Made by a program: the position numbers and the translations under genes. Below are positions 7,721 to 55,408 of a stretch of 64,000 nt of DNA, one piece after another (positions within the stretch are counted from its first letter, which is position 1; each line of letters opens with the position of its first letter). The notes under the pieces are model-generated. The model worked only from the letters and a program-made list of their open reading frames with translations, was not told the DNA's origin and made no database searches. Where the stretch lies: NCBI GenBank assembly GCA_951406725.2, contig OX597822.1:100440001-100504000 (forward strand). The letters run 5' to 3'. Source of the stretch: Octopus vulgaris (taxonomy: Eukaryota).

Positions 7721-7786
7721 TTTAGTGATGTTCCAATGACCCATTGACTCCAGATCTCGCTGTTCTTTTATAAACAACAGAATTTC

Positions 7787-7977
7787 TTATTTCGTTTTTG
7801 GATTTGGTTTGCAAGATTCTTTATGTGAGTTCGTGTGTTGAAGACTATTGAAAAGGTTGCAAGACGCAACGAAAATTTTAGGAAAATGAAAATAAGAAAT
7901 AAGTGGAAATTTTACCGGCGAGTGTGTTAAATTATTAGGCACAAAAAGAAAATGACTCTCACCAGGCACAACAGAAT
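7787..7977 (-). mobile_element. Short interspersed repeat with an internal inversion (same family as 36635-36938)
   Basis: Both blocks recur at 36759-36938 in a different relative orientation; 18-bp flanking direct repeat. Confidence 0.75.
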
Positions 7978-8934
7978 TCCTTATTCTTTTACTGTTTTCA
8001 GCCATTCTGGATCACCTATCTAGTGTATTATCGATTACATCATTTTCCATTTCTACTGTTATTTATCTCAGCAGAAAATTGGCAAAGTCGTTAGAATATC
8101 AGATATAATACTTCACAGTATTTGTTTCGGCTTTTTACACGCTATATTCAAATCTCACCGAGGTCAAATTTATCTTTCATCATTTCGGGGGCGACAAAAG
8201 AAAGTTGAAAATATTCCTATTTAAGGTGGTGCATTGCCAGAACTGTAAGAATATCAGGCCGGATGCTTTAAAGTATTTGTTCCAGCTCTTTACATTCTGA
8301 ATTCAGACCCCACCGAGGTTAACTTTGCTTTTGCTCTTCATCGTTTCGGATCGATAAAAAAAGTACGAATCTGAGGCGGTGAATTAGCAGTATTGTAAGA
8401 ACGTCCTACCGGATGTCTTGCCGAATATGTTTTAAACATGATCTTTAAGTTGTGTTCAAATTTCGCTATAGCGTACATGGGTGGTAGACTTAAGTCGTCG
8501 TCTGTTTTAACCACCCTGTATATTAAAAGCTTTTAGCATGATCCATTCCGCTCCAAGCATTCTTACCAGGTATCCGGTTTGAAGGTACTTTACACTGCCA
8601 CCCTCAACCAGACTTGGAAGCCCTCTAAAAGGTTATTAGCATTACTTTTCCTCCTGACTAAAAGATGAAGGAAAAAAAAAGAGAATCCGAATTCAGTGCA
8701 ATCTGACAACCTTCGAAGGCCTACTGCACGAAACGTCGAGCATACTCTCTCTGTTTCTTCCTTAGAATGTAAAACAAATAACTATATACTGTGTAAGCTT
8801 ATTTGTTGTTAGAGGGTTGTTTTCGTTTCTTTTGTTTTTTTGTGCTTTTTTACTGGATTGGTTTTCTTTTTTTTTTTAAATGACAGATATTTATTTCACC
8901 GACTTCAAAAGAATAGAAAGCAAAGTAAACTTAG

Positions 8935-10811: not shown

Positions 10812-11562
10812 TCAGTTTCCCCCTCGCATCTTTCTCCCATTGACTCCCCTCTCTTCTTCATAGGAACAGTTTGGCCCATTTACTCTTTACGTTTGTTCTT
10901 TTCTCTTGCAGCTTTCATCAGGTCCCACAGTTTATTGGTGCAACATGTCACTTGCACAAAAACCTGTTACATTAGCTCAGGCGATTTCATTCTTCAACGA
11001 ACACACCACCATTAACACCAATGCCCTCATTATAACAACCTAATATGCTTGTACACAGCTCTCCTCACCTATGTTATCGCTGTCATCACGCAGACTGGTA
11101 TATAACAGGAAATGTAATCAGTAAAAATAGATCAGACGTCAGTTGTGTAAGCTGACAAAAGTGCCACCTGATTAATAAACTTGTGCTAATACGATCCTAA
11201 GCTTTTATCAACCATATCCATTTTAAAATCAACCTTATCGCTTTTTAAGTCTCCCTGTGATATTGTGCATTTGGTTGCTGTTACGCATATGAAATAGCGT
11301 TGTGGTAGAAGGCTGTCGAACGACAAACAGAGAGTGAACGTGTGCGTGAATAACAGTTGGAGACATGTTACATAAATTTTATTTCTAATGCAGTTAAATA
11401 CGTGGTGAAGATACTATTTTCAAAAGTGAGAGAAGAATTTAACATTCAATTTTGCCTGCGCGCGCGTGTGTATTTATGCATGTACGTGAGAATTTGTTAT
11501 CAATAAATTTACAGTTCTATATTTAAGAGATGTGGAATTATGTTCATTATTTCCATTATTTC

Positions 11563-11624
<62 letters not shown>

Positions 11625-11629
11625 TATTA

Positions 11630-11709
11630 TTCAGGTCACTGCTTGGAATGAAACTCGGAATGGGGTTAGTAACCCGCGCTCTTAACCACTATGCTATATG
11701 CCCGTCGGC

Positions 11710-11710
<1 letters not shown>
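11630..11710 (-). mobile_element. tRNA-like Pol III head of a SINE-like element
   Basis: Minus strand reads GCATAGTGGTTAAGAGCGCGGG...GAGTTTCATTCC (A box and degenerate B box). Confidence 0.7.
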
Positions 11711-11791
<81 letters not shown>

Positions 11792-11805
11792 TGATGATGA
11801 TGATG

Positions 11806-11870
<65 letters not shown>

Positions 11871-13618
11871 TTATATGGATGATTTAAAACTCTTTGCAAA
11901 AAATGACCAACAACTCAAGGGCTTACTAGCGATTCTTAAACAATTCAGTGATGACATCAGAATGCAATTTGGCCTCGATAAATGTGCGAAAGCTACCTTT
12001 ATCAAAGGAAAAATGACAGAAACATCTAACGTTAACCTTGACCAGCAGAATGTCATAAAAGAATTAGACCCAGCGGAGAGCTACAAGTACCTAGGGGTAA
12101 TTGAAGGGGACGGAATAAGGCATTCAGTGATGAAGGAAAGGATCAGGAGAGAATGTTATCGCAGAGTAAGAGCAATACTCAAGACAGAGCTGAATGCGAG
12201 AAACAGGATCGAAGCAATCGATGCTTTAGCCATACCAGTCGTGACTTACAGTTTCAATATCGTTAACTGGTCAATTACTGAAATATGTAATCTTGACAGA
12301 AAAATACGAAAACTGTCGACAATGCATAGAATGCCCCACCCTAAGGCAGATATAGAACGATTTTTCTGCCAAGAAAAGAGGTAGGCCGTAGACTTTTACA
12401 ACTGGCAATAACAATGAAGATTGCTACAATTGGCCTAGACACCTACCTGAAAAACTCTGAGGACTGAATGTTAAAACTTGTCTCAAAACATGAAACAAGA
12501 AAGCATCATACTCAGTAACAAAACAGGCAAAGGACTATCTAAGTGAATTCCGAATACAACAAATTTCGGAATTAGACATACAAGAAACAAGCACAGAAAA
12601 AGCTAAACGCATGAAAACCCGTGCTAAAACTGCTGCCTTAGATATTCTGAATGATAAATGGCAAGAAAAACCTCTCTATGGCAAATACCCAAAGAGAGCG
12701 AATAATGCAGATGTTGACAAAGTCCTGACCCATCAATGGCTAATGGCCTCTGGCTTAAAATCTGAAACAAGGGTTTATCATAGCAGCTCAAAATCAATGC
12801 CTACCAACAAGGAACTACCAGGCCAACATATTAAAGAACGGCAGTAGCCCAACATGTCGTGTATGTCAACAGCAAAATGAAACCATTGATCATGTTGTCT
12901 CCAAGTGCAGTCTTCTAGCGCCTACAGAGTATCTCAACAGGCATAATAGAGCTGCACAATATATTCACTGGGTAATTTTCAAAAACCTGGATTAGCCCCA
13001 TGAAAAAAACTGGTGGGAACACAAACCACCTCCAGTACTTGAAAATGACCACATCTTACTCCTCTGTAACTTCCCCATTCAAACTGATAGAAAGATAGAT
13101 GCAAATAGGCCAGACATCATATTGGAAGACTTCAAACAAAGAGCATGCCTCCTCATTGATATGACTGTCCCAATCGATATAAATGTATCTGTCAAGACGT
13201 ACCAAAAACTGGGCAAATATAAAAATCTGGAAATAGAAATCAGCAAAATGTGGAACCTGAAGACTAAAACAATACCTGTTGTCATAGGTGCCCTGGGAAT
13301 GATAGCAAAAGGGGCTGATCGCTACCTAACTCAGATACCAGGAAACCCCAAAATGGCAGAAATTCAAAAGATAGTGCTCATGGGAACTGCTCATATCCTA
13401 CGCAAAATACTTTCTATGTAATCTCAAGTTTTAAAACAAACATAATTTAAAAAAAAATTTTTTTTTAGACATTCACTAGTACAACACTAAATACAAAACC
13501 AAATATATGGCACACTAGGCATAACAACAACACGAACTTCCAACCTGTTGTCTCTTGAGGTCTCTGGGTGAGACTTGGAGCCAACTTGTACAAATATAAA
13601 GCAAAAGTTAAACATAGA
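11871..13618 (+). mobile_element. 5'-truncated Dong/R4-clade non-LTR retrotransposon (RT, CCHC, restriction-like endonuclease), disrupted
   Basis: YMDDLKLF, YKYLG, CRVC...ETIDHVVSKC, RHN, NRPDI...LIDMTVP. (TAA)n on both sides. Confidence 0.9.
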
Positions 13619-13688
13619 ATAATAATAATAATAATAACAACATCGAAAATACCTTAGGAATGAGAACCTAGGTTCGAAATTTCCCCAA

Positions 13689-13734
13689 GACACCTGATGA
13701 AGGCTGGAAGGTATATCAGCCGAAACGTTGTGTT
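13689..13734 (+). ncRNA. Type I minimal hammerhead ribozyme motif (Penelope-pLTR style)
   Basis: Stem I GACAC/GTGTT; core CTGATGA; stem II GGCTGG/TCAGCC; GAAA; palindromic AACGTT with a GUU cleavage triplet. Confidence 0.8.
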
Positions 13735-14428
13735 AACAACAAACAAGATGAGGATATTTACCCTTCAAATGTAAATAATTTAAATAAATTTACACGTGTA
13801 TATTTATATAATAGTAAAAATCTTGGTTGAAAATTAATAGAATGAACACTAAACAACAGACGCGAATAAAACCATTTTATCAATCGTGTTATTAAACAGA
13901 ACCACAATGATCTCGATGCTGGAAAAATTGGTATCATTCATCCAGAAAGTCTCACTATAGAAGACAGAGCAAAACTAAGACTTACAACTTTAAGCATGAA
14001 GGACAGAGACATAGAACTAAACAAAAAACAAAAAAATTAAGGAACAAAAAACAAAACGTGGATAAACACACACACATATACACATACATATATATAAATT
14101 TGCACATCCAAATTAATATGAATATGTTACTTTAAAAGCCGTAAGCTGCATCAGTCGTCCTGGCCATTCATCTCGTATAGACGTTAAGTGCTAAATAGCG
14201 CAGATTATATCGGCAGACGCAGCTTTGTCAGCACACCGGTGAATGTGACTGTTGCATCATGTGATTTCGGCGTACTTTTTGTCTCGTCAGCAGCAGTCTC
14301 CCAATCACCGAATGCCAGACCGAAATCTTGTCAAACCGATATAGTTTAACACTGACTAAATAGTCAGTAACGTCGCAAAAAAATCGTGGTATGCAAAAAA
14401 CAATAAATAAATAAATATAAATAAATAG

Positions 14429-21600: not shown

Positions 21601-21885
21601 AATTAAGTAATTAGTGCAGTAATGAGACTGCAGTGAGAGAGACTACAGTAGACAGTTCCACAGAAACATTTCTGCGTGGTTTTACTGACAATATTTTACT
21701 TTGTCTGTTCGTCCAACTTCACGTTCAGAGTTCAAATTTCGCCAAGGTCGACTTTACTTTTCATCCTTTCGGGGTCGATAAAGCAAGTGCCAGTTGATTA
21801 CTGGAGTAGATGTAATCGACTTAATCCCTGCTCCTGAAATTGCTGGCCTTGTGCCAAAATTAGAAAACTATTTTACCTTGCCTAA

Positions 21886-22298
21886 AGGCGACGAGCTGGC
21901 AGAAACGTTACCACGCCGGGCGAAATGCGTAGCCGTATTTCGTCTGCCGTTACGTTCTGAGTTCAAATTCCGTCGAAGTCGACTTTGCCTTTCATCTTTT
22001 CGGGATCGATAAATTAAGTACCAGTTACGCATTGGGGTCGATGTAATCGACTTAATCGGTTTGTCTGTCCTTGTCTGAACTCTCTGTGTTTAGCCCCTTG
22101 TCGGTAGTAAAGAAATAGGTAGTAAAGAAATAGGTATTTCGTTCGTCTTTACGTTCTGAGTTCAAAATTTGCCGCGGTCGACTTTGCCTGTCATCCTTTC
22201 GGAGTGGATAAAATAAGTACCAGTTGAGCCCTGGGGTTGATGTAATCGATTTACTCTTCTCTCGAAATTGCCGACATTTTGCCAAAATTTGAAATCCA
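21886..22298 (+). mobile_element. SINE family 3 dimer
   Basis: Two monomers inside a 17-bp TSD TATTTTACCYTGCCTAA (21869 and 22299). Confidence 0.85.
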
Positions 22299-22949
22299 TA
22301 TTTTACCCTGCCTAAGACATCATACCAGACATTCATCATTACTAGAAAACTGTTATTTATTTGTGATTCAAATGTCTCCACTTAATATTTGACTGTAGAA
22401 GCCGAGGCAGGCATTTCTGAAAGTTTTACAAAAGGCTTCCTGGATTCTTATAAGTCCTTGAGACACATTCTAATTTGCACTCTCGTCTAATCTCGCTAAA
22501 AGATGTTGAAACGAGGCATGCGTGAAAAAATCCTTCTAGTACATATCATCGTCCACAAAATGCAGAAAATAAAACGTATAAGCGTTGGTCAGTAAAATAA
22601 ATTTTTAAAAAATAAATGAACAAATAAAGGAAAAAAAAAACAAGAAATGGATACTCGGCAGTTTGTTGCACTATCACCAACTACAAGGTTCAAACCCAGC
22701 TTATGACATACACATTTTTAACGCCCGTGAATTTGTCTTCATGAATCGCGCCTGATCTACTTCTTTGTTAGGTTTCATATTCGAACCATTATCGTTGCCT
22801 GATCTTTGCAGTTAAGTAATTATGACTCTCTCTCTCTCTCTCTCTCTTTCTCATGCTCTCTCTCTTTCTCACGCGCGCTCTCTCTCTCTCTCGGTCTATC
22901 TCTCTCCCTCTCAGAAAATCAAAATTCGTAAAAACCCTCTGTCAGTAAA

Positions 22950-26838: not shown

Positions 26839-27273
26839 AGGCGGCGAGCTGGCAGAAACGTTAGGACGCTGGGCGAAATGCTTAGCGGTATTTCGTCTGC
26901 CGTTACATTCTGAGTTCAAATTCCGCTGAGGTCGACTTTGCCTTTCATCCTTTCGGGGTCGATTAAATAAGTACCAGTTACGCACTGGGGCCGATGTAAT
27001 CGAATTAATCCGCCTGTCTGTCCTTGTTTGTCCTCTCTGTGTTTAGCCCCTTGTGGGTAGTAAAGAAATATATTTAAGTAAAGAAATAGGTATTTCGTCT
27101 GCCGTTACGTTCTGAGTTCAAATTCCGCCGGGACGACTTTACCTTTCATCCTTTCGGGGTCGATTAAATAAGTACCAGTTACGCACTGGGGTCGATATAA
27201 TCGACTTAATCCCTTTGTCTGTCCTTGTTTGTCCTCTCTATGTTTAGCCCCTTGTGGGTAGTAAAGAAATATG
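26839..27273 (+). mobile_element. SINE family 3 dimer with a 44-bp TSD
   Basis: Flanks 26795-26838 and 27274-27317 are duplicated. Confidence 0.9.
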
Positions 27274-27551
27274 TATGAAAACCAAAATAAAACAAAACAA
27301 CGGTATGTGTTTGTATATTCGGATGATACTTGCCACGATAGTGTCAAAGAATATAAAAAAGAGATGATTGGTTTCCCGTAGTTTTCACTAGTTTTGAAAC
27401 TCTCTCTAGTTATAGTTATGAAGAAGCCTAATAGAAAAAAATGTAACATTTGAGACGTTCTTGTTTCCCACGTTGGCATAATTAAAATTTTAAAATAACT
27501 ATCATCGGTAGTCAAAACCAGAATCGTAACGGAATTTCATCGGGAACATAT

Positions 27552-34540: not shown

Positions 34541-35636
34541 TTTAATATGTTTGTTGTTGTTGTTGTTATTGTTGGTGGTGGTCGTCGTCGTAGTAGTCGG
34601 GGTTGTGTTCATAGTGGTAACGAAGGGCCGGAGAAAAGGTCATTGACTTAAATAATTTACTTGATATGTACGCGTCTATGTGTGTATGTATGTACGTATG
34701 TATGCAAATCAGGTCACTGTTTGTGACATTGGTAACACGTAACCCAGTACAAACTGTTACATGGTCGGGCTGATGGCGACGACTAAACTGGCAACCGTAC
34801 CAAACCGACTTGATAAGGAGGGTGGGTTTTGCTGGATACTTTGCAAGACGAAAAAATAATTAAAAAATCTGTCAAAGGGCATGTAATCTTGATAGAAACA
34901 ATTCCTTTATTCACCGTGAGGTTGAGAAAAAGAGGGGACGATACGAGGACAGACAAAACAAACATTGGGATCAGGGGATCGAATGAGACGAAACGTATGA
35001 ATAAACAAACAATTTTATTGTATATATTTTTATATACAATTAAATGAGAATGAGTGATTTACAAAAAATGAAGCGGAGGACGCGGTCGACCCCACAAACC
35101 ACATACTCACACAGAAGACTTTGCTTTGTGCTTTTTTTGTTCTCGTTTAGACAGGTTTTTTTCACTCGCAATATACTTGTTACAGACTTCCATCTTTTAA
35201 GAAACATACTTTGCGACAGGCATTTCTTCTCCAGTCTTATTTTCCATTTCAAGTGGAAAACGAAAATGTCGATTAGCTTGAGACTAAGAATGGAGGCTTC
35301 TATCAAGTTTGACTCTATCAAGTTTACATGAGGCGCCGGTCACGTAAACTTGATAGAGTCAACGGCCATCCAACAGCAGGAAGCGAGAAACCTCTATTCT
35401 TTGTTTAGATATCTCTTCAGGAGAAGGTAATTCCGAAATTGTACCCTCTTCTCCACGAAGCCGGATACTCGCTCTTGTTTGTTTCTGGTCTACTTGGATT
35501 TTAACGGTGCTGTGTAAGCTGTTACTGACTTGAACTTTCAGCACAGGTTTTGCTGACACTCATTGTCATTCACATCTACGATAAGTTAAGATAACTTATA
35601 AGTGATGGTCACACTCGTCTACTAGTTGGCAGCCAC

Positions 35637-36259: not shown

Positions 36260-36634
36260 CATATCTGTATGTATGTACGTATTTCCACCCGTCACATGCC
36301 CAGACGAGAATTCATCACCATTGATGTAGGGGGCAGTTGATAAAACATTCATCGATATAGCAAATAGCCGCCCATCTGAACGAAATCTGAGTCAGTAATA
36401 AATTAAAATAGCGATCACTGTATCATACTTAATGTATATACACTGTTGATAGACCAGTCACTGCAGTATTTGTCCTCAGATAACATCTCTTGTGGACGTA
36501 CTATGTTAAAAAACAAAACAGACAATATATATCAGAGAGAGACGAAAATCCATTTTTGCGATGAACGCCAGATTTCGGCCATTTTGGCCTTTAGATACTT
36601 AATGCTTGTTTTTATATAAAACAATATATGGAAA

Positions 36635-36938
36635 TACTGTTGTGTCTGGGGAGAGTCATTTACTTTTTGTGCCTTATAATATAACACACTCACCGGTAAA
36701 ATTTCCACTTATTTCTTATTTTTATTTTTCTAAAATTTTCTTGTTGTTTGACTCAAAGCTATTGAAAAGGTTGCAAGACGCAACGAAAATTTTAGGAAAA
36801 TAAGAATAAGAAAAAAGTGGAAATTTTACCGGTGAGTGTGTTTGTTATAGTATAAGGCACAAAAAGAAAATGACTCTCCCCAGACACAAGACACGAACTC
36901 AGATAAAGAATCTTGCAAACCAAATCCAAAAACGAAAT
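36635..36938 (+). mobile_element. Interspersed repeat with an inverted 5' duplicate (~105-bp foldback arms)
   Basis: 36640-36745 is the inverse of 36780-36889; same family as 7787-7977. Confidence 0.8.
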
Positions 36939-37628
36939 ATATGAAAAAAAGAAACAATTTTACAGTAGACTAAAGTATTATTCAATGAAGTTTTAGAAGA
37001 CTACATGTTTATTAATTTTTTTATAAGGGAAAAGTTGACAGTGACCTTGAAGCTTCGGCTCGCTCACACACACATACACATACACAACACTGACACATTT
37101 ACGCTTATACATACTTAGTTTTATGTATGTATACATACATGCACGCAAACATATATATATGTTTATACATACATGCTTACGTATGTATACATATACTCAA
37201 ACACATACACATATACGTATATGAAATATTTAGTCACGTCAGAGACTGTTCTTTCCTTTTTTTTTTTTTTTTGGTATTACAAATTACTTATTAAATTACA
37301 TAATTCGGTGAACACAACATATTAATCCGGGATGAAACAATGCTAAATGTGTGTGTGTGTGTGAAGGGGGGGCGGCGGTTATTATGTTGGTTTTTTTTTT
37401 TTTTTTGCTTTTTTTAATTTTTACTCGAACCGACTCATAGTCACACACACAGATACATACATATAAGCATAACAGATATAGATATATACACGAACATACA
37501 CACGCCCAGATAACACACAAATATATACGCATATATTCACACAATTAACAGAAAGAGGCATTCAGACACATACAGATAACCACAGAGCCACACAGCCGCA
37601 TATACATACATATACTCACAGATAGCAT

Positions 37629-39773: not shown

Positions 39774-40171
39774 TTCTATTCAAGGCACAAGGCCCGAAAT
39801 TTTGGGGGAGAGGGCCAGTCAATTAGATCGACCCCAGTACGCAACTGCGTGGTACTTAATTTATCGACTCCGAAAGGATGAAAGGCAAAGTTGACCTCGG
39901 CGGAATTTGAACTCAGAACATAAAGGCAGACGAAATACATGTTTCTTTATTACCCACAAGGAGCTAAACACAGAGAGGCCAAACAAGGACAGACAAACGG
40001 ATTAAGTCGATTATATCGACCCCAGTGCATAACTGGTACTTATTTAATCGACCCCGAAAGGATGGAAGGCAAAGTCGACCTTGGCGGAATTTGATCTCAA
40101 AACGTAACGGCAGACGAAATACCACTAAGTATTTCGCCCGGCGTGCTAGCAATTCTGCCAGCTCGCCGCCT
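39774..40171 (-). mobile_element. SINE family 3 dimer
   Basis: 19-bp TSD TTAACACAGTTATTAATAT. Confidence 0.9.
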
Positions 40172-41835: not shown

Positions 41836-42336
41836 ACAGTGGAGGGAGGAGACCACTTGGCGAAACGTGGTGAAAGTAGGGGAGATAATCAGCAAAGACG
41901 TTGGCAAATTAGAACGATGCAGACAATCTCTAGCTTTCCCGGTTTCTACTCTTGACTTTATTAAAGGTAAGATATTGAGTTATCATTTCAAAGATTATTG
42001 ACGATTATCGAAGATTATTAAATATTATTATAGAACGATAGACGTGGGTAGAAGACATGGGTAGAATTTAGGGTAGAAGCAAGCAACTGCTGAAGCTATT
42101 TACTCAGACGATTAGTTTCTTTTTATATCAAAATAAACAGCTAATGTTCTTATACGTTGGGTGTAGTTGTGGTTGTCGTCATACATTGTTGATGCTGCTA
42201 TTACTGGTGCTGTTATCGTTGTCGTTGTTATCGTTGATGATGTTACTGCTGATGCTTCTGTTGTTCTTGCTATTGTCGTTTATTATCAGTTCTGGTGGAA
42301 TAAATAGATATATGATTAAAGGGGTCTCAGCTATGG

Positions 42337-42768
42337 AAGGTGGCGAGCTGGCAGAAACGTTAGCAGTATTTCGTCTGCCGCTACGTTCTGAGTTCAAATT
42401 CTGCCGAGGTCGACTTTGCCTTTCATCCTTTCGGGGTCGATTAAATAAGTACCAGTTACGCACTGGGGTCGACGTAATCGACTTAATCAGTTTGTCTGTC
42501 CTTGTTTGTCCCCTCTGTGTTTAGTCCCTTGTGGGCAATAAAGAAATAAGAAACGTTAGCACACCGGGCGAAATGCTTAGCGGTATTTCGTCTGCCGTTA
42601 CGTTCTGAGTTCAAATTCTGCCGTGGTCGACTTTGCCTTTTATCCTTTCGGGGTCGATAAATTAAGTACCAGTTGCGCACTGGAGTCGATGTAATCGACT
42701 TAATCCGTTTGCCTGTCCTTGTTTATCCTCCCTGTGTTTAGCTCGATGTGGGTAGTAAAGAAATAGGT
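42337..42768 (+). mobile_element. SINE family 3 dimer
   Basis: TSD TCTCAGCTATGGA. Confidence 0.9.
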
Positions 42769-42945
42769 ATCTCAGCTATGGATATTGCATCTGCCTCCCC
42801 ACCCCCGTTATTGTATACCCTGGCTATACTATCCAATATATACTTTATGTAAATCTATTTGGTCGCTCGAACTGCTGCTGCTTCTAGCAAATCGAGCAGC
42901 CACATAAAAATCCTCTCGTTGGCCTGAATATATGTTAGTCTATAT

Positions 42946-44672: not shown

Positions 44673-45422
44673 GTCCGCAATGCCAGAAAAATCCGCGATG
44701 TACTGAGAGCGCGATAGGTGAATCGTGATATGGCGAGTGGTTACTGTATGTCAGCCTCTCGTTCCGTTTTCGACAGGATTTCTGGACACCTTTTAAGTTT
44801 CTGTAAATAGAAACTTGTTAGCATTACCATGTCAGTATTATGTCATCTTGACACCATTAGGCTTTCTAAAGTCAGCCGTCGCAATATGATAATGCTTTTA
44901 TCAAATCTTGATATTATTTAATATTTTGATAACAAGATGATTATTTTACAGAACCTTGATCTGCGTAACAAAATGCTGATTAAAAACAAGAAGAACAAAA
45001 ACAAAAACATTTTGCTAGTTTATTTCTTATAACTGATTAATCTGCAGCCGTTCGGATGAGAAAGCGACAGCGCGCCCGCATGCGTGAGAAGCAGAAGTAT
45101 AGAAAAAAGAGAAGAGAGGAAGAGATAGAGAAGAGAGACAAGAAGAGAGAGAGAGGAGGAGAGAGATGGAGGAAGAGAGGGTTGGAAGAAAAGTGAGAGC
45201 AAGACTAGGAGTGCTTGTGTGTTAGTCTATGAGTGTATGTGTGTGTGTTTGCGTGTGTTTAACGCATCAGGTGAGCTGGCTAAAATGAAAGAACAACAAC
45301 AACAAAAAAACACAAACAAACACACATTTGGTTTTACTTTATCTGAGATTAATATTTTGTGTTCACTGAGGTATGTAATCCATTGGACGGATTTACTACT
45401 CACCGATACACGTCGGGTAATA

Positions 45423-45862
45423 CTACTATGGCAATTCCTCAAGGTCGAGGATGATGGTCTTCGCGCAAATTTATTGGTGAGTCCGCAGGTGACTGATAAG
45501 ACAAATTCTTGCTCGAAAAGATCGGTCGCAGTGCGGACATCAAGTGCCGGAAGGGAGAGTCGCACGTGGTTGTTGTTGTTGGCGCTCCTTCCGTCGTCTT
45601 CGTCTTTTCTCCTCCAGCTCTGCAGACCTTTTCGACTCGAAATTCGCCGTTCCCTCATGGATGGTGGTGGTTTTCCAGAGTGGTCTGTTTTTTGCCGTTT
45701 CCTCCCAGTTGGTGAAGTCAATGTCACACTTTTTGAGGTTCGATTTCAGGGAGTCCTTGTAGCGTTTCTTCTGGCCTCCTTTTGTACGCTTGCCGTCTTT
45801 GAGTTGGGAGTAGAAGATCTGTTTGAGAAGTCGTTCGTCAGTCATAGAATGACACACACATA

Positions 45863-45909
<47 letters not shown>

Positions 45910-46342
45910 TATCTATGGCAATCCCTCAAGGTCGAGGATGATGGTCTTCGCGCAAATTTATTGGTGAGTCCGCAGGTGACTGATAAGACCAATTCTTGCT
46001 CGATAAGATCGGTCACAGTGCGGACATCTAGTGCCGGAAGGGAGAGTCGCACGTGGTTGTTGTTGTTGGCGCTCCTTCCGTCGTCGTCGTCTTTTCTCCT
46101 CCAGCTCTGCAGACCTTTTCGACTCGAAATTCGCCGTTCCCTCATGGATGGATGGTGGTGGTTTTCCAGAGTGGTCTGTTTTTTTGCCGTTTCCTGGAGC
46201 GGCCACGTGGTTAGAATGACTGACGAACGACTTCCCAAACAGATCTTCTACTCCCAACTCAAAGACGGCAAGCGTACAAAAGGAGGCCAGAAGAAACGCT
46301 ACAAGGACTCCCTGAAATCGAACCTCAAAAAAAAAAAAAAAA
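45423..46342 (-). mobile_element. Chimeric RTE-clade insertion: two 3' ends plus an inverted piece inside one TSD
   Basis: [38 protein letters not shown]...GLISHLRTH; 13-bp TSD ACGTCGGGTAATA at 45410 and 46343. Confidence 0.9.
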
Positions 46343-47246
46343 ACGTCGGGTAATATGTTTTATCAAAAGACATGTAAAAGGCATTCATTATCATGTAGGT
46401 ACTCTATGTCTGTCTGTCTGTCTCTCTTTCTCTCACACATGCACACACACACTCATATTAAACAGAAATGGACCAAGAGAAATAACGCATGTGCACGAAC
46501 GGCATAAACATATACAGGTATAGCAAATACGGTACAACATAATTTTTTTATTTTACAATCATCGGAGTCCGAAGCGTTCCTCACGAACGCACGTTGGTGA
46601 GACGGTTGTGATATATAAACAGTTTCGAATAAGAACCGGAAAGCGAAGTATGAACATGCAATGTGCATGTGCACGCCGAACATAAAAATAAAAATGCAAT
46701 GCGCATGTCAAAGTAAAACGGAAGAGGAGAATAAAACAAATTATATGACAACACTATTAGTGAAGCTTTGCTGTAATTGTCTTGGTTATTTTTTTCATTT
46801 TTCGTTTATTAAAACCATCTTCGCATTTAGATGAGTCACAATTACCAAATGGCAATTAAGACCAGCTACATATGAGAAGGGGAGATAATCGCAAGAACCA
46901 AGCATTCTCTAGAGTTGGCAACGTGCCATTAAAGAGAAGAACAGTATTAAATGAAGTACCGAGAAGAGTATTTTATTTACTAAAAGAAACTTTGAAAGCT
47001 GTGCCCCAAGAATGACTGCAGTACTGAAACTGCTAAAAAATTTAAAAGAAAAACTGACCGATGCATAGCCGTCTTTGAAGCATTATAGGCCCCTGGACAA
47101 CTTAATACATTAGGTTCTATAGTAGTTATTTACTTGTAAGCAAGCCACAGCATACACAGACCAGAATTGAACCACTAGACCAGACTTGTGAGGCCCTTGG
47201 ACAACTGCTCAGCGTGCCCACGCTTTAAGACAGTATTAGACCCATG

Positions 47247-47666
47247 GAAGGCGGCGAGCTGGCAGAACCGTTAGCACGCCGGGCGAAATGCGTAGCCGTA
47301 TTTCGTCTGCCGTTATGTTCTGAGTTCAAATTCCGCCGAGGTCAGCTTTGCCTTTCATCCTTTCGGGGTCGATAAATTAAGTACCAGCTACGCACTGGGG
47401 TTGATGTAATCGACTTAATCCGTGTGTCTGTCCTTGTTTGTCCTCTCTGTATTTAGCCCCTTGGGGGTAGTAAAGAAATAGGTATTTCGTTCGTCTTTAC
47501 GTTCTGAGTTCATATTCCGCCGAGGTCAGCTTTGCCTTTCATCCTTTCGGGGTCGATAAATTAAGTACCAGTTACGCACTGGGGTCGATGTAATCGACTT
47601 AATCCGTGTGTCTGTCCTTGTTTGTCCTCTCTGTGTTTATCCCCTTGTGGGTAGTAAAGAAATAGG
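47247..47666 (+). mobile_element. SINE family 3 dimer
   Basis: TSD GTATTAGACCCATGG. Confidence 0.9.
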
Positions 47667-47900
47667 TATTAGACCCATGGTTGTTTTCACCCAAGTTTAT
47701 TTGAAAAACAGTAGTTTAAACATTTAAGTTTCATCTTCTAATCTTTATCGCATTACTGTTACAAATATAGAAACAATGTCATTGATGTTCCGACAATTAT
47801 ATAAGTCATTCATTCACCTGCTCCCTTATCCCCTCATCACTAACAAACATAATCTATGCCACCCTCACCATCCACAACAACGAACATAATAAGGTATGAT

Positions 47901-52135: not shown

Positions 52136-52193
<58 letters not shown>

Positions 52194-52195
52194 TT

Positions 52196-55100
52196 ATGTG
52201 CTCTCTTAACGAGATACCAAGCATTGACCTTTCCATGGCTCTTTGAGCCGTTATCAGTCTTTGCTCTTCTCTCTTTGTGGTAGCCCATGTTTCACTACCA
52301 TATAACATTGCAGGCAGAACTGCACTGTTAATGAGGTTGGCGCGGGTGGTCCTGTCCAACCTTCCCTTGAGCACATCCCTTATGCCATTGGACGCCTTCC
52401 ATCCGGCCCTTACTCTCCGTGAGATCTCCTTTTTGATATCCCGGCACATATTTACTTCCTGTCCCAGGTAGACATATTCTCTCACCTCCTCTATTTCATC
52501 ACTGCCGATCACCATTCGACCTGTTGGTACGTTGTCTGACCGCATGAACTTTGTTTTCATGCGGTTCATCTTGAGACCTACTGCAGAACTTTTGATGTCG
52601 AGCTCCGTCAGCATGGTCTGAAGCTGATCCAAGTTTTCAGCGATGAGTACGATGTCGTCAGCGAAACGGAGGTGAGTGAGGAGCTCGCCATTGATGTTGA
52701 CATCACCTTGCCATTCGATGCCTCTGATGATCTGTTCGAGACATGCAGTGAAAAGTTTTGGGGAGATTGTATCTCCTTGCTTCACTCCCTTCTCGACCGG
52801 CACTCGATGGGTGATGACAGTAGGGCTATGTCGGTGGTGCATCCGGAATTTACCTCTCTGAGCAGCTGCACATATTGCGCTTCGATACCTTGCCTCTGCA
52901 GCGAGTTCAGCACTGCGTTGGTTTCGACGCTATCGAAGGCCTTCTCATAATCTATAAACGCAACGCAAAGAGGCAGCTTGTACTCATTTGCTCGCTCAAG
53001 CAGTTGCGTTAGAGCAAATATATGGTCCATTGTGCTGTAGTTCTTCTGGAAGCCTGCTTGCTCCCTCGGTTGTTGTTCGTCGAGACGACGTGACAACCTG
53101 TTCAGAATTATCTTCGTGAACAGCTTGTACACGTGAGACAGCAGGCATATGGGTCGGTAGTTCTTTAGATCTTCTCTGTCGCCCTTCTTATACAGCAGGA
53201 TGGTATTTGACTCTTTCCACTGCGAGGGAATTCTTCCCTCGTCTAGATAGTGCGTAAATCGATCAGCGAGGATTTTCCAGAGCTGCTCACTGCCTGACTT
53301 TAGCACCTCCGATGTTATACCGTCTTTCCCTGGAGCCTTTCCATTTTTCATCGAGCCGATGGCTCTTTCAACCTCACTGACAAGGATAGGTGGCACGTTT
53401 TCTTCCTGTTGGAGTGGTGGTAACGGCTGGACATTTCTGGTAGACTTAAAGAGCTTGGTGTAGAAGTCTTCACAAACTTTTTCCATCTGGCTCTTCTCGT
53501 TGACCGGTATTCCATCTGTATTTTTCAGGGCCGTCACCTCCGATCTATATAGTACCATGTCCCTCTTGCATTTCTTGAGGCTCTTCTTTTCCTCTGCGGC
53601 CTTCAAGAGCTCCTCCATCCGGTATGCCTCAAAGTCTTTCTTTAGTTGCTGACGAATCACTCTGCTGAGAATGGAATATTCAAGGTGATCTTCAATAGTC
53701 CTCTTCATATTTTTCCTCTTCTCGAGTAACTTCGTAGTTTCTTCCGAGATTCTTCCCTTCTTTTCTTTTGGGCATACACCTTTAGCCTTCCTTAAACACT
53801 CCTTCAGTTTCCCTATCAGTGAGTTGTAGTCATCGTCTATGTCGTCTCCTTGGCACCAGTCTTCCTGCATGATGGCTTCCTGCAGCTTTGTCTCATTGTA
53901 GACTCGGACACGTTTTCCCTTCGACGCCAAATATAACGCCATCTTCTCCCTCTTCTCGTCGATGACGACCCTCGCCCTTACCAGACGATGATCACTGCCG
54001 GTGTTGAATGGCGTCACGACGGAGACGTCATGCAATATGCGTCGCTTATCAACCAGGATGTAGTCGATCTCGCTTCTGTGCCTAGAGTTTGGCGATATCC
54101 AAGTCCATCTCTTCCTCTCCCTCTTCCTGAATAGGCTGTTTCCGATGTAGAGCTGCCTCGCCTCTGCCATGGTAGCCAAACGTTCTCCTCTCTCGTTTCT
54201 CTCTCCCATGCCAAATCTCCCGACGTACTCCTCTCCTTGTCGTCCATGTCCAACCTTTGCGTTGAAGTCTCCCATTACGACAGTGTAAGTGGACTTCATA
54301 GCCAACTCTTTGTCTAGTTGTCGATAGAATTCTTCCACCTCGTCGTCGTCGCTGGCACTTGTGGGAGCATAGGTCTGGACAATCTTGAGGGTGGCCTTCC
54401 CTGAGAGGTTCACATTTAGTACACCAATCCGTGATGATATGAAGTGGCAAGAAGCGACCCTCGAAGCCCATTCCTTACTTACGATGAATCCGATACCTCC
54501 GACCGATCTAACACCTTCTGCTCTTCCTAATCTCACAATGTATCCATCTTGCCATCGTATACTCGCTTCCTTCTTCCAACGTGTCTCGCACAGCCCTAAC
54601 ACGTCGCACCTGATCTTCTTCCTCTCCTCCATTAGGTGCTTCAGTTCTTGCCACCCTGCCATAGACCTGCAGTTGTAGGGGCATATGGCAAGTTTAGTCC
54701 TGTTCCATGACGGCTTTCGGGAACCTGTGATCCTTAGCAGCCTCTCGCCGCTCGAGTTGCACTACGCCGTCATGGAGTGGCCCGATTGACGTGCAGGGTA
54801 CTGAGGCCCTTTTCCTTTTCTCTTCGTTCTTCGTGCTGTTTTAGCCATAAGATGACGCCATCTCACTGGCTGGGCGGGCAGGCCGGTATTTTGTTAGATG
54901 GCTGTTGACTCTTCAGGAGTTCATCCGCCCTTTGTTGGGTCTTATTTTTCCATCCCACAGGGAGTCCAACAGCACCCTCCTCACCAAGCGAACCTGGTGG
55001 GGTTGTCAGTTTAGTCGCCGACGTCCCGATAGTAACATCATCAGAAAGAAGTCCGGCGTGAGAAATGTCATCGCAGAGTATACACGCAGCAAGTATAGAT

Positions 55101-55338
55101 GGGCTGGACACGTCGCCCGGCTCACCGATAATCGGTGGACGCACGCAGTTGCCGAGTGGTACCCGCGTGAGCGGAAAAGACCACCCGGAAGACCTCCACG
55201 ACGGTAGAGTGACGATTTCAAGAGGACGATTGGGATCACGTGGATGAGAAAGGCGCGATCCAGAGAGAAGTGGACAGCGTGCTGTGACCAGCGGTGTCAA
55301 ATGGACGCCTGACGGACTGGTCGGTCAAAGTGATCAAA

Positions 55339-55342
<4 letters not shown>
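52196..55342. mobile_element. Near full-length RTE-clade LINE with its 5' 2.8 kb inverted, inserted in (TA)n
   Basis: Minus strand: 5'UTR, APE (LGLCETRW, YAPTS, GDFNAK, IDYIL, SDHR) and RT (FIDYEKAFD, GVKQGD, FADD) up to SLREHI. Plus strand 55031-55342 continues SNIIRKKSG...WAGHVAR to tail (TCAAAGTGA)2. Confidence 0.95.
52782..54662 (-). CDS. RTE ORF (APE + RT N-terminal part), frameshifted near 52810
   Basis: 626-aa ORF with the motifs above. Confidence 0.85.
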   Translation of the reverse strand: MAGWQELKHLMEERKKIRCDVLGLCETRWKKEASIRWQDGYIVRLGRAEGVRSVGGIGFIVSKEWASRVASCHFISSRIGVLNVNLSGKATLKIVQTYAPTSASDDDEVEEFYRQLDKELAMKSTYTVVMGDFNAKVGHGRQGEEYVGRFGMGERNERGERLATMAEARQLYIGNSLFRKRERKRWTWISPNSRHRSEIDYILVDKRRILHDVSVVTPFNTGSDHRLVRARVVIDEKREKMALYLASKGKRVRVYNETKLQEAIMQEDWCQGDDIDDDYNSLIGKLKECLRKAKGVCPKEKKGRISEETTKLLEKRKNMKRTIEDHLEYSILSRVIRQQLKKDFEAYRMEELLKAAEEKKSLKKCKRDMVLYRSEVTALKNTDGIPVNEKSQMEKVCEDFYTKLFKSTRNVQPLPPLQQEENVPPILVSEVERAIGSMKNGKAPGKDGITSEVLKSGSEQLWKILADRFTHYLDEGRIPSQWKESNTILLYKKGDREDLKNYRPICLLSHVYKLFTKIILNRLSRRLDEQQPREQAGFQKNYSTMDHIFALTQLLERANEYKLPLCVAFIDYEKAFDSVETNAVLNSLQRQGIEAQYVQLLREVNSGCTTDIALLSSPIECRSRRE

Positions 55343-55408
<66 letters not shown>

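Follow-up and report, generated by a model that had tools for sequence, protein, structure and literature searches.

The twin-priming model for 5' inversions of LINEs reportedly goes back to Ostertag and Kazazian in 2001. In a study based on cell assays, 5' inversion is treated as a nearly exclusive trait of L1 in mammals, linked to host factors and to how long the 3' overhang is; apart from one Nimb-2_DR insert, all such inversions came from human L1 in human cells, and RTE elements were outside the assay (PMC4245944). The same paper gives target site duplications (TSDs) of 10-12 bp for RTE elements, citing Ichiyanagi and Okada 2008, and another source has L2 and RTE forming U6 chimeras by template switching only (PMC4476161). 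Our literature search, which covered main texts, found no paper on twin priming in RTE elements or in octopus. Two papers on RTE insertion sites gave no inversion result by term search of the text available (PMC6007223, PMC13295347), the accessible parts of four others reported no inversion for RTE or octopus (PMC13174262, PMC12988792, PMC9115989, PMC13282606), and in the excerpts of two more the term occurred in reference lists only (PMC5389967, PMC2718515). Accounts of RTE inversions may already exist in Ichiyanagi and Okada 2008 and in Kojima and Okada 2009.

Two types of RTE element are close to the one analyzed here. Elements of the RTE-1 / SR3 type are described as having one AP endonuclease-reverse transcriptase (RT) ORF, a length of about 3.2 kb, short UTRs, a short tandem repeat at the 3' end and an AT-rich target (PMC1291365). 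RTE-2_OV of Octopus vulgaris is an RTE-clade LINE with endonuclease and RT; its ORF encodes 1109 aa, including a C2H2 finger, and its UTRs measure about 600 nt (PMC9115989).

The locus studied here lies in a 64-kb stretch of Octopus vulgaris DNA (the window), which is animal DNA rich in microsatellites. It is a dead, nearly full-length copy of an RTE-type LINE of 3.15 kb, inserted in a (TA)n tract. With RTE-1 / SR3 the copy shares the one-ORF layout, a similar length, short UTRs, a tandem-repeat tail and the AT-rich target (PMC1291365); unlike these elements, it is dead and its 5' part is inverted. Like RTE-2_OV (PMC9115989), it is an octopus LINE with endonuclease and RT, but its product would be about 975 aa, its 3'UTR is 30 nt long and its C-terminal translation contains no C2H2 motif. 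Identity with RTE-2_OV was rejected on architecture, by comparison with its published description, and the two are different families.

The likeness to mammalian twin-primed L1 lies in the geometry: the internal end of the inverted 5' part faces outward, the forward part follows with the tail, the breakpoints are a few bases apart and there may be a short microhomology at the junctions, here 3 nt or none (PMC2912911, PMC12016303, PMC4245944). Unlike mammalian L1, the octopus copy is an RTE-type element with a single ORF, no ORF1 and no poly(A), and its host is an invertebrate. Its TA-repeat target hides the TSD, and the inverted part, 2.84 kb long, amounts to 90% of the element, whereas in human germline L1 the median is 751 bp (PMC12016303). 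Nimb-2_DR in DT40 cells is likewise described as a 5' inversion of a non-L1 LINE; unlike the octopus copy it was a single cell-assay event and belongs to another clade (PMC4245944).

The element and its place in the RTE clade

On the minus strand of the inverted part, Pfam detected an endonuclease domain (PF03372, E 8e-11) and RT (PF00078, E 4.7e-14 and 7.6e-16). The ORF of this part is interrupted by a one-base frameshift, and that of the forward part by a premature stop ahead of the ORF stop at 55310-55312 (Table 1). The AP endonuclease precedes the RT in a single ORF, colinear with relatives of 886-996 aa. There is no ORF1, the 5'UTR is short (about 180 nt, with about 21 nt more missing), the total length is 3150 bp, and the 30-nt 3'UTR carries two 9-nt units and no poly(A). 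The nearest protein matches were pieces from Octopus sinensis (80-97% identity), in keeping with an octopus host; further matches were proteins at 53-65% and nematode and insect EN-RT proteins. This architecture and these matches fit the RTE clade, in which the element is provisionally placed on these grounds. No second copy of the element body was found in the 64-kb window by blastn or tblastx, the element matching itself only.

Table 1. Features of the inserted element and of the tracts on either side (positions in the window).
Feature	Position	Strand	Evidence or remark
Left (TA)n target tract	52141..52193		In phase up to 52193 except base 52190
TAT, shared by element and TA tract; candidate microhomology for priming (outer junction)	52191..52193		Two X17 contigs match down to 52191; uncertain, as the joint 52194 to 55030 has both=0
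Inverted 5' part, 2.84 kb: 5'UTR, endonuclease, RT, ends ...SLREHI	52191..55029	-	Pfam, relatives, contigs
ORF of inverted part, starting with the ATG 54848 and covering P0001 residues 1-880, frameshift near 52806	52195..54848	-	Pfam, relative P0001
5'UTR, about 180 nt, short of the family 5' end by about 21 nt	54849..55029	-	Contig loose ends behind 55029
Inner junction, head to head; base 55029 is common to the two parts (1-nt microhomology)	55029..55031		ATA, reverse complement of 52191-52193
Forward part: C-terminal ~95 codons, SNIIRKKSG...RWAGH..., premature stop 55205-55207	55029..55312	+	Relative P0001
3'UTR, 30 nt, two copies of a 9-nt unit at its end, no poly(A)	55313..55342	+	Sequence
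Right (TA)n tract, pure	55343..55408		Sequence

The inverted arrangement and its breakpoints

Comparison with an uninverted relative of 974 aa (P0001) gave two alignments on opposite strands. Residues 1-880 aligned from 54848 down to 52195 on the minus strand, and residues 885-962 with 55040-55273 on the plus strand; the DNA encoding this protein (L001) mapped in the same two-strand way at 68-69% identity. The stretch leading from MLG to WAGH is 38 residues long in 50 of the 57 relatives caught by a motif pattern (out of 120). Since the two halves in the window give 10 and 27 residues, exactly one codon lies between them.

The family was present along the whole stretch in contigs of three runs (X4, X17 and X6, coded as three organisms). 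The unrearranged joint, which connects 52194 with 55030 on opposite strands of the window, was found in X4 and X17 contigs. The register of the break is fixed by a sister subfamily, in which ten letters (H-I-S-S-E-I-I) separate 52196 from 55037. Relatives and contigs thus indicate that the breakpoints are adjacent in family coordinates, with either a 3-nt overlap or a 1-nt gap. The inverted part is certain to 52194, and extends to 52191 if the three bases common with the TA tract are counted. At the other end, the 5' end of the family runs about 21 nt past 55029, as attested by loose ends in all three contig runs and by a second head at 34740-34824. The latter, a diverged RTE 5' head, contains the 21 or so nucleotides that the 52-kb copy lacks. 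The contig depth of the family climbs toward the 3' end and is not to be read as a copy number.

We conclude that the inverted arrangement is real in the assembly. The first-pass annotation had proposed a nearly complete element with a 2.8-kb inversion, the inverted part ending at ...SLREHI on the outer flank, the forward part restarting at SNIIRKKSG, almost nothing lost at the break and the 5'UTR at the internal junction. All of this was borne out: the inverted part is 2.84 kb long, with SLREHI ending at 52195 on the minus strand, SNIIRKKSG starts at 55031 on the plus strand, at most one base is lost between the halves according to relatives and contigs, the 5'UTR abuts the inner junction (55029), and the 5' end lacks only about 21 nt. 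Mapping of the breakpoints by alignment to uninverted relatives and same-family contigs, as the annotation had advised, placed them no more than 3 nt apart.

Both halves carry letters of the NSN type at the break (H-I-N-S-N-I-I) and not of the HI-SSE-II type, although the diagnostic letters are few; an origin of the halves from different subfamilies was rejected on this basis. An inversion extending into flanking DNA was also rejected, the inner junction being wholly explained by letters of the element, with no TA remnant there beyond the three bases accounted for by the forward part. Among the best 40 of 389 differences from the family contigs, 34 fell in the 2839 bp of the inverted part (1.2%) and 6 in the 313 bp of the forward part (1.9%), and 32 of the same 40 were transitions. 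The copy has drifted 1-2% from its family since insertion.

A metagenome scan returned 13 loci, none closer than 70%, and the three that were compared were all uninverted. Two metagenome contigs, L001 and L002, are uninverted relatives with about 69% DNA identity over the whole element, and both end in the same flank sequence. They were the closest matches found without an octopus label.

Probable twin priming and alternative origins of the inversion

Twin priming at insertion is the best reading of the 2.84-kb 5' inversion, and we consider it quite probable. The 5' part is antisense on the outer flank and the 3' part with its tail is in sense. The outer end of the inverted part adjoins the start of the forward part; in human L1, these two ends lie within 20 bp of each other in 132 of 287 5' inversions (46%) (PMC12016303). 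Both parts belong to one subfamily, as judged from few diagnostic letters, and show similar decay, and flanking DNA is absent from the inversion. The twin-priming reading had already been put forward in the first-pass annotation. Its geometry, the single subfamily and the flank-free inversion stand; the mechanism itself we infer, the TSD being hidden in (TA)n and the microhomology amounting to 3 nt or none.

The letters at the junctions can be read in two ways. The last three bases of the left tract, TAT, are the reverse complement of the ATA with which the forward part starts, and AAT was present at the break codon in three X17 contigs. If the source RNA read AAT, the halves overlap by 3 nt, which would represent target-RNA microhomology, and base 55029 would be a 1-nt microhomology at the inner junction. 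If the source had another letter at the break codon, there would be no microhomology and one base would have been lost. The joint from 52194 to 55030 is given with both=0, so that some copies probably have another letter there. The 3-nt match is weak by itself, as ATA or TAT is present at 77 of the 2839 positions of the inverted part. In human L1, about 70% of 5' inversions have 2-5 bp of outer microhomology (PMC2912911). Since (TA)n stands on both sides of the insert and is compatible with a TSD of any length, the TSD is unreadable. Rfam gave sub-threshold matches only, in the junction region and at 11480-11760.

By twin priming, the element endonuclease would have nicked the (TA)n tract and the 3' tail would have primed the first cDNA. 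The near-complete flip implies that the second strand would have been cut when only about 310 nt had been copied. The freed end ...TAT may then have paired with AUA, in codons H-I-N-S of that RNA, and started a second cDNA, which would have run for 2.84 kb and stopped about 21 nt short of the RNA 5' end. The cDNA ends would have been joined head to head over one shared base, with host repair filling in. As promoter and ORF point away from the tail, such a copy would have been dead on arrival.

Some observations count against twin priming of this copy. The TSD is unreadable, the cell assays gave 5' inversions almost exclusively with human L1 (PMC4245944), and the best run contains only 0.58 of the words of the copy. 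At 2.84 kb, the inverted part is much longer than the median of 751 bp in the human germline (PMC12016303). The window letter was also at zero depth at 19, 25 and 20 of 40 places in X4, X17 and X6, respectively (the best 40 of 389), which suggests that these samples lack this very copy.

The letters at both junctions would be explained equally by a balanced inversion over a 3-bp inverted microhomology, which they fit exactly. In this case a normal near-full-length copy would have been broken later at the edge of the TA tract and inside the element, then rejoined over TAT/ATA. Tracts of (TA)n are self-complementary and prone to breakage, and the copy is old enough to have accumulated 1-2% change. 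However, because no TA remnant is found at the inner junction, the left break would have to fall in the last three of the 53 TA bases, an event to be expected in about 6% of cases by our estimate if breaks are uniform. Among the 25 longest of 516 pairs, no inverted repeat except TA links the two breakpoints, so that recombination over long homology is not supported. Moreover, the other head-to-head joints of the family and the TSD-flanked insert at 45410, described below, point to a recurring process linked to insertion. A later inversion therefore appears unlikely.

An assembly error, in which a 2.84-kb piece was flipped by a chimeric read or by a false path linking the self-complementary TA tracts, is improbable to a greater degree. 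Microsatellites do lie at both flanks, and neither a read nor a contig of this copy was seen in the runs. But one breakpoint falls in non-repetitive element sequence, there is no fold-back duplication (the element matches itself only in the window), the differences are rich in transitions as in true decay, and similar joints occur in short-read contigs of other samples. Least probable of all is the presence of two separate copies head to head in one TA tract, or the conversion of one by another: compound insertions do exist in the window (45410 and 11502), but the antisense piece would have to lack a 3' tail and to end within 3 nt of the start of the other, and the two pieces agree in their subfamily letters and have decayed to a similar extent.

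Probable recurrence in the window and in the family

Together with the copy analyzed above, the inserts at 7773, 11502 and 45410 had been counted in the first-pass annotation as up to four inversion-type insertions from non-L1 elements. Of the four loci, two hold 5' inversions of RTE-type elements, those at 52196 and 45410; the remaining two have other structures. The insert at 45410-46355 is compound and is flanked by an exact 13-bp TSD. On the minus strand it consists of a T-run, an inverted segment of 136 bp (46196-46331), a forward piece that begins after a gap of 25-26 nt, a (TG)n tract, and another copy, truncated at its 5' end and 96-99% alike. The insert may possibly derive from a read-through RNA spanning two tandem copies. 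Its pieces matched the fetched EN-RT proteins weakly (33-45%) and gave no blastn match with the 52-kb element; from its motifs we take the family to be RTE/BovB-like. The 45410 insert makes a good case for a second, TSD-backed example of twin-priming geometry in another family.

The locus at 11502-13794 is bounded by an exact 12-bp repeat and consists of a SINE-like piece in antisense, (AAT)n and, in sense orientation, an RT element truncated at its 5' end, presumably Dong/R4-like by its motifs. A 5' inversion of one element was rejected here, as two different elements stand head to head; the arrangement may have arisen as a head-to-head chimera of two RNAs or by two insertions into the same site. 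The short non-coding repeat at 7774-7985 has an inverted arm within an 18-bp TSD (1 mismatch), the start of which matches about 10 nt of the element. A second copy at 36623-36949 forms a hairpin with a 14-bp repeat (2 mismatches), and its inverted arm (copy at 36633-36939) begins at the same place. This fixed boundary suggests a trait of the family and not a 5' inversion event, and the family looks like one with putative Penelope-like inverted ends, by analogy with elements described in PMC8557442. A frequent repeat family with a tandem unit of about 185 nt was also seen at 21700-22300, 26840-27280, 39780-40170, 42330-42770 and 47240-47680, among other places.

Joints in the contigs of the RTE family were then considered. 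Among the 15 joints shown of the 57 found, 4 were unrearranged, 5 were deletions and 6 were orientation flips, the flips thus making up 6 of the 11 rearranged joints among those shown; eight further joints of no stated kind were left out of these counts. Four of the six flips run antisense then sense, like the inner junction (family positions 2726/2895, 2720/2873, 2511/2861 and 192/3025), with depths of 67-129 in X4 and X6, near the depth of the long contigs. The other two are opposite-strand joints within the inverted part (2641/2474 and 206/2488). The 192/3025 joint, found in X4 and X17 (runs of two organisms), would be another 2.8-kb flip, provided that its outer end is adjacent. Flipped joints were collected with likeness set to 88, only three of the six have at least 30 letters on the short side, and they concern inner joints alone; nested antisense insertions would give the same joints. 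The six flips among the 15 of 57 joints indicate that flips probably recur in this octopus family.

A head-to-head joint from 54838 to 55217 was also present in runs of different organisms, X4 and X17, and X6 had a joint of no stated kind from 54838 to 55224. The joint 54838 to 55217 could possibly mark an orthologous site with an older inverted copy of 2.8 kb. Contig depth was high over 54973-55029, with many loose ends, which suggests that a non-autonomous family shares the RTE 5' head. Loose ends were likewise observed before 55317, where 13 contigs of X4 and 20 of X6 contain only the last 25 nt of the element with a common other sequence ahead; another family may thus use the 3' end of the element.

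The mechanism discussed here is a known one, and what is new lies in the clade and host concerned and in a flip that spans almost the whole element. The copy is a single one without function, and its value lies in the family-wide count of flips to which it leads. It is conceivable, though we hold this extension to be tentative and somewhat doubtful, that twin priming is routine for octopus RTE-clade LINEs of at least two families, about as frequent as in mammalian L1 (10-20% of copies) and often with a nearly whole flip. RTE elements combine 10-12-bp TSDs with a single ORF and lack poly(A), so that frequent twin priming in this clade would test the idea that overhang length governs 5' inversion, and would show that ORF1p and poly(A) are dispensable. 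If so, 5' inversion would be a general property of LINEs with staggered cuts of 10-15 nt, for which neither ORF1p, nor poly(A), nor mammalian host factors are needed.
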